This document shows, one piece after another, positions 20,914 to 41,651 of a DNA stretch of 64,000 nucleotides. Source of the DNA: Bdellovibrionales bacterium (lineage in GTDB: Bacteria > Bdellovibrionota > Bdellovibrionia > Bdellovibrionales > UBA1609). The stretch lies in the NCBI GenBank assembly GCA_041690295.1, contig JAWLHR010000015.1, positions 15,102-79,101 on the forward strand, read 5' to 3'. Positions within the stretch are counted from its first letter, which is position 1. Every line of letters begins with the position of its first letter. The position numbers were made by a program, and so were the translations under genes. The notes beneath the pieces are model-generated. The model saw nothing but the letters and a program-made list of their open reading frames with translations. It was not told the DNA's origin and made no database searches.

Positions 20914-21000
20914 CCCCAGGTGGCGAAATTGGTAAACGCACCAGCTTGAGGGGCTGGCGCCCGCAAGGGTTTGCTGGTTCAAGTCCAGTCCTGGGGACCA
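20914..21000 (+). tRNA. tRNA-Leu(GAG)
   Basis: Acceptor CCCCAGG/CCTGGGG, discriminator A, encoded CCA; anticodon arm CCAGC-TTGAGGG-GCTGG; long variable arm; GGTTCAAGTCC. Confidence 0.97.
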
Positions 21001-21098
21001 TTTTCCTTTCGGCCTCCCTCAGGTCGTCGGCTTCCCTGCTTCCTTGTGACGTGAATCATATCTTCCGCTAGATTGAAAAGGTTAAAACTAAACTTCGC

Positions 21099-21515
21099 AT
21101 GTACCACATCACCAAGAAGTTTCGGTTTGAGGCCGCGCACCGCTTGATCGCGCCTTATTCGGGCAAGTGTTCCAATTTGCATGGCCATTGCTGGGTCGTG
21201 AAAGTCCATGTTCGTGCCCCTCACCTTGATGAGCGGGGTTTTGTGAAAGATTTCGTCGAGCTAAAACCGCTCGAGCAGTGGATACGAGAGAACCTTGATC
21301 ATGGGACTCTGGTTTCCGAACGTGATTTACGATTGCTGGAATGGCTCGAGGAAAATTCGCAAAAGCATTATCTTTTTCCGGTGAATCCCACCTCGGAGGC
21401 GATCGCGAAATTGCTTTTCGATGTGGGTCGAAATCTGAGTCTGGAAATCGATCGGGTGGAAATCCGGGAGACCTCGACCGCCTCGGCCGGGTTCATCGGC
21501 GTCGGGGAGTGTTGA
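21099..21515 (+). CDS. queD: 6-carboxy-5,6,7,8-tetrahydropterin synthase
   Basis: FEAAHRL, CSNLHGH, LDH, NPTSEAIA, RETS. Confidence 0.92.
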   Translation: MYHITKKFRFEAAHRLIAPYSGKCSNLHGHCWVVKVHVRAPHLDERGFVKDFVELKPLEQWIRENLDHGTLVSERDLRLLEWLEENSQKHYLFPVNPTSEAIAKLLFDVGRNLSLEIDRVEIRETSTASAGFIGVGEC

Positions 21516-21519
21516 ACTA

Positions 21520-22107
21520 TCACTTCCGGTCGTTCGCCATGAAAGCCACCAGATCTTTATGATCGGCTTTCACTCCGTCGAGCGCTTTGCGCGGCACACC
21601 TTCCTTATCCAGATAGACCAATCGATTGGAATGCGCGAAACCGCCTTCCTTTTCTTTGGCGTAGGTGATGCCCAGAACCGCGGCGAGTTCACGAACATCG
21701 GCGGCGGATCGCGGTGAAAGCATGGTCCAAGGTTCACGGTTTATTTTTCTTTCCTTGAGATATTCCGCCACCCGGCGCGGATTGTCGCGTTCGTGGTCAA
21801 ACGAGGCCAGTACGATTTTGTAATTCCTTACGCCTTTCTTTTTCAGATCGGTTTCAATCTCCTTAAGCTTGGCGATCATCAGCGGGCAAGTGTACTGGCA
21901 ATGAGTGTAGATCATCGTCATGAGGATTTTCTTGCCGTGGAAATCGGCCAAGCGGATTTCTTTGCCGGAGGGATCAAGCCAGATCGTTTCGATGTTATAA
22001 ACCGATTCACCTTTGAACTCGGGCGCGCTCGCTTTGTTTTTTTGATCGGCCCCACAGGTCACGGCAAGCACGAGGGCGAGCGCCAATAATGATTTTCTTT
22101 TACTCAT
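21520..22107 (-). CDS. SCO1/SenC copper chaperone (probable lipoprotein)
   Basis: YTHCQYTCP (CxxxC), SFDHERD, FAHS; N-terminal hydrophobic segment ending in AVTC. Confidence 0.9.
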   Translation of the reverse strand: MSKRKSLLALALVLAVTCGADQKNKASAPEFKGESVYNIETIWLDPSGKEIRLADFHGKKILMTMIYTHCQYTCPLMIAKLKEIETDLKKKGVRNYKIVLASFDHERDNPRRVAEYLKERKINREPWTMLSPRSAADVRELAAVLGITYAKEKEGGFAHSNRLVYLDKEGVPRKALDGVKADHKDLVAFMANDRK

Positions 22108-22891
22108 TTCTTTCTCCTTTCACGCACCGAAACCCCAAGTTTCTGATCGTGGAGGTTCCCTTCAAAGAGGAGCGGAACGCGAACCGCATAAACGCCGGAT
22201 AATTTTCCTTATTGCCGCCCGCCAATGACCCCGCGGCGCACACCAACTCACGCTCAATCGAACCGTTGGTTCGGCTCTCGCCGGAGATTAAACTGGAGTT
22301 GAAATCTTCAATCCATTCCCAAATCAATCCATGAAGATCGTAAAGGCCGTAGTAGTTGGGTTTGCCGCGGCCGACTGGGGGCACAGGTCCGCTCCCCGGT
22401 GGCTTGTTGTACCATTCGATCAGGCGGGCGAGATAATCCGGATCTTCGCTGGCATCGGCTTTCGTTTCACTGGCGGCGCCCAAATATTCCCACTCCGCAA
22501 GTGAGGGGAGCCTGAGCCCATGGCTTTCACAATAGGCCCGGGCGGCGAACCACGATACGTAGGTCACCGGTGCCCGGGGGTGGATCTCTTTTTTTAAGCG
22601 CAAGTCGGACGCGAACTGCTCAAGATAGGACGGGTCGGCGAATATCCTTTTGATTTTCGATTTGCGCCATTTTGGATTGGCGCGAACGAAGTCGACATAC
22701 TCCGAATTGGTGACAGGAAGATTCATGGCATGAAAAGGTGGAATTCTGATTTTCTCCTGCTCGCCGGTGATGTCCGTCGGCGCGATCCAAAACGGCTTAA
22801 GTTCACCGCCCGGAATTTGAACCAAACGCGGCTTGATCTGGTTGGCGTGAGCCGTGAAAAAAATGAAGGCCAGCGTGAGAACATGAAGCAT
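22100..22891 (-). CDS. FGE-sulfatase/SUMF1-domain protein (NirV-like)
   Basis: PVTNSEY, PVTYVSWFAARAYC, RLPSLAEWE, PNYYGLYDLHGLIWEW, NLGFRC; downstream of nirK. Confidence 0.88.
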   Translation of the reverse strand: MLHVLTLAFIFFTAHANQIKPRLVQIPGGELKPFWIAPTDITGEQEKIRIPPFHAMNLPVTNSEYVDFVRANPKWRKSKIKRIFADPSYLEQFASDLRLKKEIHPRAPVTYVSWFAARAYCESHGLRLPSLAEWEYLGAASETKADASEDPDYLARLIEWYNKPPGSGPVPPVGRGKPNYYGLYDLHGLIWEWIEDFNSSLISGESRTNGSIERELVCAAGSLAGGNKENYPAFMRFAFRSSLKGTSTIRNLGFRCVKGERNE

Positions 22892-22899
22892 TTCCTATC

Positions 22900-24333
22900 C
22901 TATTGCCCGATTCCGACCACGCCGCTGGGTTTGACCTTGGCGGCTTCCTCGGGCGTGACGGTCTGCTTGGAGTTGCCCCAAGCGCTGTAAACGTAGGTCA
23001 GAACATTGGCGACTTCTTCATCGGTCAGACTCAAAGCGGGCATGACGCCGTTATAAGACTCTCCATTGACAACAATGGGCCCGGAGAGACCGCCTTTCAC
23101 GATGCCGATGGCGCGGGTCTTGTCGGCGTTTAAAAAATCCGAGTTCGCCAGTGGGGGAAAGGCGTGGGGCACTCCGCGTCCGTCCGCCTGATGGCAAGCG
23201 GTGCAGTTTTGTTCGTAAATCGTTTGCCCCATCCGGATGCGCTCCTCCAGTGATTTCGCGATTCTGACTTCAGCTTCGGGAGTTTTGGGGAGCGCGCCGC
23301 CCTCGGGCAGGTAAACTCTCTCGGAGATCAATCCCGAATAGATAATTTTGTCTTCCGGCCCTTCGGCCTTGATCATGCCCAAGGCGCCCTTGTTGAAAGC
23401 GCGCAATATCGCGTGGTCCACCATGATGTAGGTTCCGGGGACATCGATCTTGAATTCCACGATCGCGGCGCCGCCGGCGGGAACCGTCGTGGTGGCGAGA
23501 TTCCGATTAACCGACGTTCCACCCTCAACATAAACTTTCTCAAAAATCTCACCAATCAGATGAAAAGACGAAGTCAGATTGGGGCCACCGTTACCCACGT
23601 ACAAACGAACGGTCTCGCCGACTTTGGCGGGCAGAGCCTTATCGCCGTTCAACGCGCCGACGGATCCGTTGAACAGCACGTAAGTGGGCTTTTCCTCGAT
23701 CGCCTTTTCCATGCTGAAGGGTTGATAACCCTGTTCTCCGTATTTCCCCTTCGTGTAGAAATCGCCTTGCATGACGTAATGCTCGCGATCGACTTTCGGT
23801 AATCCCTCTTTGGGTTCGACCAAAATCAGACCGTACATGCCGTTGCCAACATGCATACCGATCGGCGCGGCCGCGCAATGATAGACAAAAAGTCCATGAT
23901 TGAGGGCTTTGAATGAAAATATGGTTTCCCGTCCCGGCGCGGTCATCGACGCGGAAGCGCCTCCTCCGGGACCGGTGACCGCGTGCAAGTCAATGTTATG
24001 GGGCATTTTACTGGTTGGATGGTTGCTCAGATGAAATTCGACAAGATCACCTTCCTTGATCCGGATGAAACTGCCAGGCACGGTTCCGCCGAATGTCCAA
24101 AAGGTGTAGTCCACGCCGTCAGCGATTTTCATGCGCTTCTCGAGAACTTCGAGATGAACGATCACTTTCGTGTTGTGTTTTCTCGTGATCGGCGGTGGCA
24201 CTTCAGGCGGCGCGGTGAGTTTCGCCACCTCTTCGCCGATGATCTTGTCGGATTTCGGACAGCCGGTGATGAGCAAGGAAATCGCTAAAATCGCCTTCGT
24301 TTTGAAATCGCCCACGCTTGAAGGGCGGAGCAA
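22900..24333 (-). CDS. nirK: Copper nitrite reductase, lipoprotein, fused to a C-terminal cytochrome c
   Basis: [13 protein letters not shown].....[22 protein letters not shown] copper ligands; CTACH heme motif and GVMP; lipobox LITGC; TTG start with GAGGGG 8 nt upstream. Confidence 0.95.
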
Positions 24334-24393
24334 GGCTCATGCCCCTCAGGATGACGCTGGTGTATTCGCAACGTCTCGGATCAACTCCGCTCT

Positions 24394-24606
24394 TTAAGCC
24401 GCCGGACGGAATGTTGTTTTGGATGCTAAGATGTACTGAGTTCGGGTTCGCACTTCCAATGTGTTTCGGCAATGATTGCATTGGCAGGTGATCTGCGTTT
24501 CCTTATCCCTGAAGGAAACATTCATCATCACCGAGAAATTGCCCTTCTTATGACAACATGGGCATTCGGCGTTCTTCGCCATCATTTCAACTTCAGATAA
24601 TCTCAT
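24394..24606 (-). CDS. Small zinc-ribbon-like protein (70 aa)
   Basis: CPCC...CQCNHC; ATG 24606 follows a G-rich RBS and lies just downstream of a sigma54 promoter. Confidence 0.7.
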   Translation of the reverse strand: MRLSEVEMMAKNAECPCCHKKGNFSVMMNVSFRDKETQITCQCNHCRNTLEVRTRTQYILASKTTFRPAA

Positions 24607-24631
24607 CAAAAAAACCCCCCACTTTAAAGAT

Positions 24632-24707: not shown

Positions 24708-24730
24708 TGTCTAAAGGCTGACCAGGTTAA

Positions 24731-24892
24731 CCAAACGGGATCTGTTTTGGGTCCCATACACGGGCGGCAGGACGCTGCCGGCAATAATCCACATGGACGG
24801 AGGCAGGACGCCTCCACAGGGTTGTTGCCTGAAACGAGGTCGGAACGAAGCTGCGGCGGACGGCTAGCAGCGGAAATGGAGAACACCATGGA
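24731..24892 (+). ncRNA. Putative CsrA/RsmA-binding structured RNA (sRNA or 5' leader)
   Basis: 10 GGA motifs in about 160 nt; hairpins GGCGGC-AGGAC-GCTGCC and GGAGGC-AGGAC-GCCTCC display CAGGACG; enclosing stem GCAATAATCC/GGGTTGTTGC. Confidence 0.5.
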
Positions 24893-25022
24893 CGAAGCGA
24901 TCTTTCTCTACGGGTTCGCGGCCTTGATGATGGTCAATCTTCTCGCCTCGGTCCTCTATTACACGGGAATCAGCCGGTTTCGCTCTCACATGCGCCGGCG
25001 GAGCCCCACGAATACCAAGTGA
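24888..25022 (+). CDS. Small single-pass membrane protein (44 aa)
   Basis: MDEAIFLYGFAALMMVNLLASVLYYTGISRFRSHMRRR...; GGAGA RBS; hydrophobic helix followed by a basic tail. Confidence 0.5.
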   Translation: MDEAIFLYGFAALMMVNLLASVLYYTGISRFRSHMRRRSPTNTK

Positions 25023-25072
25023 ATTTGCTCTCAATGCTGGACAGCGGCAATCCCGGCGGCTACTAATCGCCT

Positions 25073-27186
<2,114 letters not shown>

Positions 27187-38701: not shown

Positions 38702-41221
38702 ATGCGAGCAAAAGTTGCGGATCCGAATCGAAGATTCAACGGGGGAATTCGGAATCAGCGCGGTAACCTGCCGATCATATTGAGTTCTTTAATGGGCGCG
38801 GTTGTGATTTTGTTCGCTGGAATCAATAATCTCGCCCATATAACTCGCGATCTGAACCGCCGGACCAGTATTCAACAAAGCTATCAAGCCGCTTTGAACA
38901 GTGTTCTGAATTATGTTCGATCGGCTCTTAAGATGCGATGGTGTTTCAGGCCCGACTTCGATCAAGACAGTCCAGCTCAATGTCATTTGGCGCATCCCCG
39001 GTCCACCGAGCGATTGCTGGTGACCACCGATCAGATGGCTTATTTCGATGCGATGAAAGCGATCGATCCTTCCATGCCGCTGGGAAACCCGATCCGCTTG
39101 GACCGGATTCACGGCGTGCTCAAGGTGAGCGACCTTCCCGATGCGCACCCGCTTAAACCCATGTTTTCAACCGTTGAACTTACCGCGATCGAATCCATTG
39201 AAATCGATATTCAGCGGGATGAGACCGCTAACAGCGAAGCGGCGGGAACGGAAACCCACTTGCGAGTTTCCGTGACATTCAAGCCCGCGGATGGCCAAGC
39301 CTTCGCTGATGGTCGCACGATTCTCAAGGCCACTGACCAACTCGCCGTGTACCCCCGCGAACTCAGCATTTTTGGGCTGATCGTGCCGGGCGATTTGATT
39401 TTGGATGGATCGGGCGCGCAGGCCGGAGATGTTTCGATTCCGAACGTGCAAGGTCGGGGTTTGGTGTTTTCCAGTCCCGTTTTTGTCAATCGCAATTTGC
39501 GCTTGCCCGAAGGTCCGCTAAGAGGCGTTCATTTCGGTGATCAGATTGTGATGGGGCGGGGAATTGTGTTTCAGGGCGGTCGGCCCGCGGGCACGACGCT
39601 CAAGGGATCGGTTGAAGATCGCACCTACGCGGCACTTGGGTTGCAGAGGGGAATCAAGATCGATGGCGAGTTGGATATGGGACTCGAGGTTTTCTCGGGC
39701 CGGTCTCCGAGTGAACAATTGGACACTCAGAATTTTCAAAGTTGTTTGAAAGTGAACGCGGCTCGGTTCGAACTTGAAGCCACCAAAGACGCGACGCTGT
39801 TAGTGAAAAGTTTAAGTGAAGGACAATTCCGTTTGGCGTGGAGTCACATGGACTACTTCGAGCCGCAAAACGTGAAGGCGTCGGCCAGCGCGAGCGGGAA
39901 CTTCTTGAAGCAGCCGAAGTTGGACGCGAAAGGTAACGATAAACCCATCGTGCGGGTGTTGGTGAAGTACGATATTGGACCCACGGTGACCGCCTACATG
40001 GCCCGAGGGAACACGCTTACGATTTCACAACCCAACATTTCCTTCGGTAAAGGCAACCAAGGGCAAGGCAACCAAGGTCAGGGAAATCAGGGACAGGGTA
40101 ATCAAGGGCAGGGCAATCAAGGCCAAGGCCAGGGTAATCAAGGTCAAGGTAACCAGGGTGATGATGAAGCCAAGGAGGCCGAGAAGCAGTTCAAGGAGAA
40201 CGCCGGCGAATTGATCATTCAATTAAAAGAAGTGGTTGAGAATGGAAACGCACAGTCCAATCAAGCCGATTTGGAAATTGAACTGAAGAACAGGGATTTT
40301 TTCGCCTCGGCCGTCACGGTTGAAGTGATGGGATATGATATCGGCTACATGAACGCGAGCCAACTGCGGGCCGCCCCTGTCACCTTGGGGAAGTTCGCTA
40401 ATGTGGCCACGCTACGCTATGGCATCACGATGGGAAAATTCTTCGGTAGTGTCTCCCTTGAACTGTCTTATCCAAATACCTTCACCCGTGCCGACCGGGC
40501 GAATCCAGGTCCGGAGGATCTGGAGGTCAACACCGATTGGGAAGGCCTCTCCCAAAAATGCGACGCCGATGAAACGGATCAGGGATATGCGTTCCAGCCG
40601 GTCAACTGGAGCGGTGCCTTCACCGGGTCCACCCGGTTCTCCTGGTCGGTGCGCGAGCCCGCCGCCCTGCCCACGGGATTTCTCTTGGATCAGAACAACG
40701 CCCGCTCGCAAGGCGCGGTGAAACCCCAGTTTCATGTGCGCTCCATCGAACCCCGGTGCACGGTCCAATCGAGCGCCAATTTCGTCGCCGGATTTTTTGT
40801 TTGTGATCAATTCATCATTCAACCCCGCACACAACCCCTGCGCATCACGGGCACGGTGATCGCCAAACAAATGTTCATCGACGCCAGCGCGATTCGCGCG
40901 GGAATCCGCTGGTCCAATATTTATGATCCCGCGGCGGTTTTGGATCTGCGCCAGGCGGGCATTCTGGCGTCCAGATTTTCGGCCAATGCGCCGAGCTGCA
41001 ATCCCACGTTCGATAATCCCTTGTGGCATCCCGTGGCCACCATCGCCATGCGGGATGACCGGTACAGCTGCAACTCCGTTTCCTTGCGCGATCAATTCGA
41101 CAATATCCGATGGACGACCGTGGATCCCGACTGCGGTTTAATCTCCGGCGCTTACACCACCACCTGTAAACGTCGGGCGAATCGCTATGTGATTAAGGAG
41201 CTGGAACGGTACTATGAATGA
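38702..41221 (+). CDS. Large PilX/GspK-like prepilin-type protein (839 aa)
   Basis: NQRG^NLPIILSSLMGAVVILF class III signal without Glu5; Cys-rich C-terminus; coupled to two pilin genes. Confidence 0.65.
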   Translation: MRAKVADPNRRFNGGIRNQRGNLPIILSSLMGAVVILFAGINNLAHITRDLNRRTSIQQSYQAALNSVLNYVRSALKMRWCFRPDFDQDSPAQCHLAHPRSTERLLVTTDQMAYFDAMKAIDPSMPLGNPIRLDRIHGVLKVSDLPDAHPLKPMFSTVELTAIESIEIDIQRDETANSEAAGTETHLRVSVTFKPADGQAFADGRTILKATDQLAVYPRELSIFGLIVPGDLILDGSGAQAGDVSIPNVQGRGLVFSSPVFVNRNLRLPEGPLRGVHFGDQIVMGRGIVFQGGRPAGTTLKGSVEDRTYAALGLQRGIKIDGELDMGLEVFSGRSPSEQLDTQNFQSCLKVNAARFELEATKDATLLVKSLSEGQFRLAWSHMDYFEPQNVKASASASGNFLKQPKLDAKGNDKPIVRVLVKYDIGPTVTAYMARGNTLTISQPNISFGKGNQGQGNQGQGNQGQGNQGQGNQGQGQGNQGQGNQGDDEAKEAEKQFKENAGELIIQLKEVVENGNAQSNQADLEIELKNRDFFASAVTVEVMGYDIGYMNASQLRAAPVTLGKFANVATLRYGITMGKFFGSVSLELSYPNTFTRADRANPGPEDLEVNTDWEGLSQKCDADETDQGYAFQPVNWSGAFTGSTRFSWSVREPAALPTGFLLDQNNARSQGAVKPQFHVRSIEPRCTVQSSANFVAGFFVCDQFIIQPRTQPLRITGTVIAKQMFIDASAIRAGIRWSNIYDPAAVLDLRQAGILASRFSANAPSCNPTFDNPLWHPVATIAMRDDRYSCNSVSLRDQFDNIRWTTVDPDCGLISGAYTTTCKRRANRYVIKELERYYE
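40052..40159 (+). repeat. Coding tandem repeat, (GNQGQ) x about 7
   Basis: GNQGQGNQGQGNQGQGNQGQGNQGQGQGNQGQGNQG; 15-nt units differ at synonymous positions. Confidence 0.9.
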
Positions 41222-41651
41222 TCAAAAAGGTTTCACCTTGGTCGGCGTTTTAATCGCCAGCGTGATTATCTGCACGATCGCCTTCGGTGCGACCGAACTC
41301 ATTCGCGTCAACGCGGCATTGTTGGCCAAAACCAAACAGCAGCGTGAAATGGCCCGGGTGATCGGCAATGTCCTTAACCACGTGATTGAAAATCTCGCGA
41401 GCCTTCAGCGCACGTTCGAGACCTCGGTTTCGACTCGCGAAGCGTTGTTGCGCGAAGACCGGCTGCCGTTCGCCTGGGACCAGTCCAGCGTGGTTCCCGC
41501 CGAACAATGTCCCACCTGTCCGGGACGGATGGGCTACATCATTGAACCGCTTCCGGGCCGACCCAGTTTCAGCCGGCTCACGATTCGCATCACCAACGCG
41601 TATTTGTTTCAGGGATACAGGGATTATGTGTACATCCTCGCCGACGATTAA
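41214..41651 (+). CDS. Minor pilin/pseudopilin (PilV/GspI-like)
   Basis: MNDQKG^FTLVGVLIASVII; Gly instead of Glu at +5; CPTC. Confidence 0.8.
   Translation: MNDQKGFTLVGVLIASVIICTIAFGATELIRVNAALLAKTKQQREMARVIGNVLNHVIENLASLQRTFETSVSTREALLREDRLPFAWDQSSVVPAEQCPTCPGRMGYIIEPLPGRPSFSRLTIRITNAYLFQGYRDYVYILADD

Follow-up and report, generated by a model that had tools for sequence, protein, structure and literature searches.

A predicted CsrA-controlled leader of a short membrane-peptide mRNA in a Bdellovibrionales genome, with a promoter motif shared by fliW and an ECF sigma factor gene

The element described here, at positions 24728-25022 of the window (the 64,000-nucleotide stretch of a Bdellovibrionales contig that was analyzed, to which plain coordinates refer), reads as the 5′ leader and coding sequence of a short membrane-peptide mRNA. 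The leader would be repressed by CsrA and would form part of a feed-forward loop with a Bd0743-type ECF sigma factor and FliW, a reading whose chances of being right we put at about even. An earlier note on this DNA had seen a GGA-rich, multi-hairpin RNA and offered three options for it: a Csr-type sponge, a dual-function sRNA/mRNA, or a CsrA-repressed leader. The last of these is the best fit. It is more compact and more sharply delimited than was then proposed: two hairpin loops are conserved, as is, in most copies, a GGA at the ribosome site, and a promoter motif that the note had not included likely links it both to fliW and to an ECF sigma factor.

Results

Structure of the element

All parts of the element lie on the plus strand. 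A predicted ECF-sigma (Bd0743-type) promoter at 24728-24753 has the -35 box TAACC (24728-24732), a variable 16-nt spacer and the -10 box GGGTC (24749-24753), from which we infer a transcription start near 24758-24760. Hairpin 1 (24763-24779) carries the loop AGGAC at 24769-24773 and is the predicted high-affinity CsrA site; hairpin 2 (24780-24829), with basal (24780-24790/24819-24829) and apical (24799-24804/24810-24815) stems, presents the same loop at 24805-24809 as a second predicted CsrA site, the two loops being near-duplicates in this genome. The predicted fold also has a third hairpin, with a GGAC loop (24850-24871), which is a lineage-specific insertion in the linker. It is followed by a ribosome-binding region (24872-24892) with three GGAs: one at 24872, one in the Shine-Dalgarno sequence GGAG (24878-24881), and one at 24890 overlapping the start codon. 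The ORF (24888-25022) encodes 44 aa, predicted to form a single-pass membrane peptide that is hydrophobic at about residues 4-27 and has a basic C-terminal tail; a start at another in-frame ATG, at 24876, would lengthen it to 48 aa.

Much of what the earlier note read from the letters is borne out. Both CAGGACG hairpins and their enclosing stem form in the predicted fold, as does the GCTGC/GCAGC hairpin around a further GGAC; the GGAs at 24878 and 24890 do lie over the ribosome-binding site and start of the 44-aa ORF. The ten GGAs it counted are exactly where it placed them, and its chance expectation of about three agrees with the 2.9 per 160 nt computed genome-wide. As a cluster of ten they hold up less well: the GGA at 24738 is inside the predicted promoter spacer and so would not be transcribed, that at 24799 is base-paired within a stem, and hairpin 3 was not seen in the copies of 16 relatives. 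The count itself is weak evidence, since at least ten GGAs occur in 31 of the 36,022 non-overlapping 160-nt windows of the genome (110 places by sliding windows). Stronger evidence comes from the folding, which is strand-specific: the plus strand gives z = -3.5, with none of 200 shuffles equally stable, and the minus strand z = -0.46, with 72 of 200 equally stable.

In this genome the predicted fold leaves all three hairpins intact and there is no U-run; a terminator scan between the hairpins and the ORF found none, and a sigma-70 promoter scan was empty. In the suggested comparison with CsrB, RsmY and RsmZ in Rfam, the element matched no Csr/Rsm model at the gathering score or at E <= 10, nor did it match any other Rfam family; its counterparts in other families (below) were likewise without a match.

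The peptide has 27 database homologues, all unnamed or "hypothetical." It matched no Pfam or NCBIfam family above cut-off, and the ESM Atlas yielded nothing usable (best score 0.85). Its single hydrophobic helix and basic tail suggest, as a guess guided by what ECF regulons generally do, that it sits in the inner membrane and modulates a membrane protein as part of an envelope-type response.

Conservation within the genus

The region upstream of queA was read in 17 genus relatives, and a covariance model was trained on 14 copies of the element. The model finds one copy in this genome and one in each of 16 of the 17 relatives, three of them outside the training set; the sole relative without a match is a 77%-complete genome. 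BLASTN against 40 relatives did not detect the element. A second BLASTN match in its own genome (on contig C17) was set aside: it spans 25 nt within a coding gene and is due to chance.

Two-sided changes occur in the stems of both main hairpins, bearing out the covariation that had been proposed as a check. The GGA of the hairpin 1 loop is present in all 17 copies and stays invariant while the stem letters vary freely; in 14 copies, 84% of cells are paired (slid controls of the 14 sequences, 30-56%), eight of nine pairs show two-sided change, and the covariation score is reached by 0/500 shuffles, these controls taking no account of kinship among the copies. The apical GGA of hairpin 2 is found in 13 copies and missing in four; with G005, G007, G013, G014 and G015 left out of the alignment, the other 12 of 17 copies are 88% paired, with two-sided change at 8/10 pairs and, under shuffles equally blind to kinship, none of 500 reaching the score. 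Two relatives have hairpin 1 only. No hairpin 3 was found in the 16 relatives' copies, and the non-conserved GGAs are likewise particular to this genome.

Of the 17 genomes holding the RNA, 16 keep the ORF, hydrophobic and 40-50 aa long (one copy spans an assembly gap), and RNA and ORF stay linked in these even where other genes have been inserted before queA. The residues Y, F, L, M, N, A, S, Y and G are invariant among nine aligned peptides. Thirteen of the 16 ORF-bearing copies have a GGA no more than about 16 nt from the start codon, and the other three have none at the ribosome site. The exceptional genome, G014, retains the promoter and both hairpins and has no ORF.

A promoter motif shared with an ECF sigma gene and fliW

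The motif TAACC-N16-NNGTC stands exactly before 16 of the 17 copies of the element, the remaining one having a 17-nt spacer. Across the order, 22 of 30 loci of the Bd0743-type ECF sigma gene also have it, no more than about 70 nt upstream of the gene's start, and so do 20 of 30 fliW loci, upstream of fliW (16/17 within the genus); a motif of eight bases would be expected by chance about once per thousand such windows. In this genome it lies just upstream of the ECF sigma gene (L034:369-394, plus strand, 20 nt ahead of the gene), of fliW (L001:1384-1409, minus strand, as TAACC-N16-GTGTC, within the csrA-fliW pair), and of a further ORF that we take to be DksA-like. fliW thus likely has an ECF promoter of its own. 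A Bdellovibrio bacteriovorus-like genome has the exact motif before bd0743 and the variant TCACC-N16-GTGTC before fliW.

The bare motif is not enriched over a whole genome (37 matches, vs. 86 for a reversed control), and weight is therefore given only to matches whose position is conserved. An ECF sigma factor usually transcribes its own gene, and because the motif precedes both this sigma gene and fliW it is likely that sigma's promoter, an assignment whose one basis is its position before the sigma gene. The gene is the orthologue of bd0743 (56% identity); a genome of the same order matches exactly a B. bacteriovorus bd0743 primer published in PMC3464611. Bd0743 of B. bacteriovorus is described in that paper as constitutive and dispensable, with -35-binding residues that differ from those of RpoE; the accessible text of that paper gives no promoter consensus, and the motif and the link to fliW are proposed here. 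A FliA promoter was considered and rejected: the consensus quoted in PMC3627812, TTAAG-N16-CCGATA, does not match the element's motif.

Beyond the sigma gene and fliW, candidate regulon members in this genome, all on minus strands, are at C3:131788, C11:52477 and C22:34190. At the first of these sites we take the gene to be a DksA-like ORF and at the second, behind rsmE, one for an RDD-like membrane protein, and at the third is a 373-aa ORF; sequences similar to the motif-bearing RDD-like/rsmE site are found in several other genomes. In genome G079, by comparison with G086, a short tandem duplication doubles the -10 box of the promoter (L322:1575-1625, minus strand).

Genomic neighborhood

The earlier note had the element divergent from the nirK operon. 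It is not directly so: between nirK and the element lies a small, unannotated, Cys-rich and zinc-finger-like ORF (24394-24627, minus strand; CPCC ... CxCxxC), of which one of the 17 relatives has a 61%-identical homologue, in another neighborhood, flanked by GGDEF and subtilisin genes. Nor is a tie to nirK supported, which is not among the upstream neighbors in the genus loci listed; these neighbors vary between relatives, and the link was dismissed as incidental.

The usual downstream neighbor is queA (25073-26089, plus strand; Pfam PF02547). It likely has a sigma-70-type promoter of its own, with TAGACA-N17/18-TAAGAT just before it in three of four relatives scanned. That promoter (25035-25075) ends 6-9 nt before the start codon here and in relatives, so the queA mRNA appears to be near-leaderless. 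The idea that the element is a leader peptide or attenuator of queA was rejected, given this promoter-like motif and the other genes that intervene in G011, G012 and G013.

tRNA-Leu(GAG) serves as a positional marker across the order, and adjoins the element in 6/8 genus loci scanned. Here it was found by ARAGORN at 20914-21000 on the plus strand, 3.7 kb from the element and in the opposite orientation to that in relatives, likely through a local rearrangement or insertion. The intervening stretch (20914-24627) holds a PTPS/queD-like gene, a nirK-FGE-SCO operon and the Cys-rich ORF. In G014 and G011 (L147, L155), the stretch upstream of the element is near-identical and contains a partial tRNA-Leu copy, and the elements themselves are quite diverged; the two genomes may share an element that integrated at the tRNA. 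Elsewhere in the window, ARAGORN calls a tRNA with anticodon TTA ("tRNA-Stop") at 41216-41306 (plus strand), where Rfam gives no tRNA, so the call may be spurious or may mark a pseudo-tRNA.

Counterparts in other families

The genus covariance model matched none of 19 other genera of the family and gave one weak match in 25 genomes of other families, and the peptide profile did not reach other families. Counterparts were found instead by sequence pattern and position. A loose pattern search of 251 genomes gave matches in 124, many of them inside genes, and controls matched as well; because of this noise, only matches read by eye were used (one, in G028, proved on reading not to be of this kind).

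Among these, the layout of promoter, two to five GGA hairpins and small ORF recurs beside tRNA-Leu(GAG), and divergent from it, in three other families. All six Bdellovibrio-type genomes searched, and G086, have the promoter, three GGA hairpins and further GGAs, a Shine-Dalgarno sequence and a hydrophobic ORF of 39-42 aa; in five of six Bdellovibrio-type copies read, the last hairpin runs directly into the Shine-Dalgarno sequence. In family f12 (four loci read), the promoter and two GGA hairpins precede a helical ORF of 60-75 aa and then a hydrophobic peptide, with queA next in both of the loci checked for it. In one genome of family f3, a 57-aa ORF comes after the promoter and four GGA motifs. 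The peptides of the three families have no detectable homology to each other (hhalign, 0.3% and 22%), and orthology is therefore argued from position and layout.

In family f10, five among the 30 loci listed have the motif before genes whose start codon is inside a GGA hairpin, a layout that reads as repression. These leaders (L046, L049, L052, L055 and L064, at ~1501-1560) are short, and their ORFs include short exported-looking proteins and one that is presumably a LuxR-like helix-turn-helix protein. In two Bdellovibrio-type loci (L050 and L242), a conserved acidic protein of 68-69 aa, for which no NCBIfam family was found, is preceded by the motif and by a GGA hairpin or two. Also in Bdellovibrio-type genomes, a highly conserved two-hairpin element ending in a U-run lies 3′ of the peptide ORF (L322:1255-1325, minus strand; also L319, L320, L323 and L315); it has no Rfam match, and its conservation exceeds that of a plain terminator.

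CsrA, FliW and other GGA hairpins in the host

The genome (2.88 Mb, 99.9% complete) contains both csrA and fliW, whose presence the earlier note had left to be checked; they are adjacent, next to flgL, in a flagellar cluster. csrA is found in 16/17 relatives, the exception falling in an assembly gap. There are seven flagellin-like genes in addition to flgL, and several of their leaders carry GGA hairpins of the same kind. Together with the hairpin 1 GGA loop, kept in 17/17 copies on covarying stems, this leaves the reading of the element as a CsrA ligand well supported.

A scan of the genome with a strict, paired, GC-rich GGA-hairpin pattern, a version of a check that the earlier note had proposed, found the element to be the sole cluster among 226 single matches. 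This is no proof of uniqueness, since the scan missed an RNA in the gap between flgI and flgJ (L079:1275-1500, minus strand, contig C11). That stretch of about 200 nt has five GGA motifs, of which four fall in predicted hairpin loops, folds with z = -4.5, ends in a long U-run and has no Rfam match. It shares its loop motif with the element but differs in locus, number of motifs and U-rich end; a TAACC-type promoter was sought there and none was found. The flgI-flgJ RNA is the better candidate for a multi-site CsrA sponge in this genome.

Discussion

If CsrA represses the leader, the parts could work together as follows. A Bd0743-type ECF sigma factor would transcribe the leader and peptide mRNA from about 24759. 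A CsrA dimer would dock on a hairpin loop and bridge to a GGA at the Shine-Dalgarno sequence or start codon, as at E. coli glgC, and so bridged would block ribosomes on the peptide mRNA. The active sigma would also make FliW, from the promoter between csrA and fliW; FliW would inactivate CsrA, and only then would the peptide be made. This would be a coherent feed-forward loop, coupling the peptide also to levels of free flagellin, and an abundant leader could soak up some CsrA as well. Both the glgC bridging model and the antagonism of CsrA by FliW are described in PMC7652899, and the element's loops fit the CsrB repeat and the SELEX consensus quoted there; the variants found ahead of the loop GGA (A, AU, AA, AC, UA) follow that consensus.

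How much of the function lies in the RNA itself? One possibility is that it mainly titrates CsrA in trans, as a sigma-induced sponge acting beside FliW, either a short RNA ending after hairpin 2 or a dual-function mRNA. In its favor, G014 has promoter, both hairpins and a U-run but no ORF; hairpin 2 and its U-run score as a terminator there and in G006 and G003, though not in G004, the fourth relative scanned, or in this genome. Bdellovibrio-type and family f3 versions have four or five GGA motifs (one with a run of seven U before the ORF), four families share the RNA layout while their downstream peptides lack detectable homology, and co-induction with FliW would hit CsrA twice. The loss of the ORF in G014, the terminator-like hairpin 2 and the additional Bdellovibrio-type motifs keep a sponge or dual role in consideration, but we regard it as unlikely: within the genus only one or two loops are conserved, two relatives make do with hairpin 1, the ORF is retained in 16/17 copies, and the same genome has in the flgI-flgJ gap a better multi-site candidate. 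fliW is, moreover, reported to be anti-correlated with genes driving Csr sRNAs (PMC7652899). For this copy, a CsrB/RsmZ-like multi-site sponge is the weakest of the three options first offered, with two conserved loops, no terminator before the ORF and no Rfam match.

CsrA could also act in the opposite sense, activating translation by fixing the GGA hairpins and so pulling their C-rich strands off the Shine-Dalgarno sequence, or attenuating transcription by stabilizing hairpin 2 as a terminator. Refolding of the first kind is described for moaA and ymdA (PMC7652899), and in six of 15 ORF-bearing leaders folded (G006, G004, G003, G008, G009 and G016) the best or centroid fold does pair a hairpin strand with the Shine-Dalgarno sequence, in several of them with matching beyond the G-run; the terminator-like form of hairpin 2 in three of four relatives would suit the second. 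It is for the Shine-Dalgarno pairing that we keep this alternative, at a distinctly lower probability than a sponge. The pairing partner differs between genomes (hairpin 1, or the tip or base of hairpin 2), G/C-rich strands pair easily with a G-rich Shine-Dalgarno sequence, and the fold in this genome keeps its three hairpins intact and has no U-run. Least probable of all, in our estimation, is that the GGA match is incidental, and that the hairpins bind some other protein, merely stabilize the mRNA, or are REP-like remnants. The two loops here do look repeat-like, and GGA-rich windows are not rare; but the fold is strand-specific, the GGA is invariant on stems whose letters are free, the loop variants follow the CsrA consensus (as quoted in PMC7652899), and flagellin leaders carry the same loops. 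A REP/BIME repeat proper was rejected, there being one copy per genome and not many dispersed copies.

Read as a CsrA-repressed leader, the element is predicted to work like those of E. coli glgC and B. subtilis hag, which likewise have GGA hairpin loops upstream of a ribosome-site GGA (PMC7652899, PMC13443453); like the element's host, B. subtilis has a CsrA-FliW pair in its genome. It differs from both in its target, a 44-aa predicted membrane peptide rather than a flagellin or an enzyme, in its two long covarying stems, and in the predicted ECF promoter that it shares with fliW. With CsrB/CsrC and RsmX/Y/Z it has in common CAGGA(U/C/A)G-type loops on short stems. Unlike them, with their many sites, it has two that are conserved, continues into an ORF, matches no Rfam model, and is under predicted ECF rather than BarA-UvrY/GacA control in a host that has FliW; by many loops and by Rfam match it would not be placed in the CsrB/Rsm family. 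Closer in one respect is the Campylobacter jejuni flaA mRNA, which is described as dual-function in the CsrA-FliW network (PMC4894983): there too an mRNA with CsrA sites is potentially both target and decoy, but the element is not a flagellin message, and its role as a decoy is putative.

These parts are of known kinds; their combination was not found in print. A literature search of mainly open-access papers turned up no account of a CsrA-targeted leader or a CsrA sponge in Bdellovibrio, or of a promoter for Bd0743. None of the eight attack-phase sRNAs listed in the accessible part of PMC3627812 is near 2.16 Mb, the position of the counterpart in G086, if the coordinates are comparable. In B. 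bacteriovorus, CsrA has been implicated in predation, with little known of its regulation there, and represses a hag reporter with a GGA hairpin (PMC13443453).

The analysis names a candidate non-flagellar target of CsrA and a candidate promoter for Bd0743, an uncharacterized sigma factor, and predicts a wiring in which the sigma makes FliW, FliW inhibits CsrA, and CsrA inhibits mRNAs made by the sigma. Target, promoter and wiring all have counterparts in B. bacteriovorus-like genomes, and since a bd0743 deletion strain has been published, each of these claims is directly testable. A bolder and more doubtful proposal, no more probable in our view than the sponge, is an undescribed anti-CsrA regulon in which Bd0743 would make both FliW and a dual-function RNA beside tRNA-Leu(GAG), with hairpins that sponge CsrA and a 3′ half that encodes the membrane peptide. 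If this were true, a single promoter would command antagonism of CsrA both by RNA and by protein, usually found in different lineages, and would do so in a predatory bacterium in which CsrA has been linked to predation.
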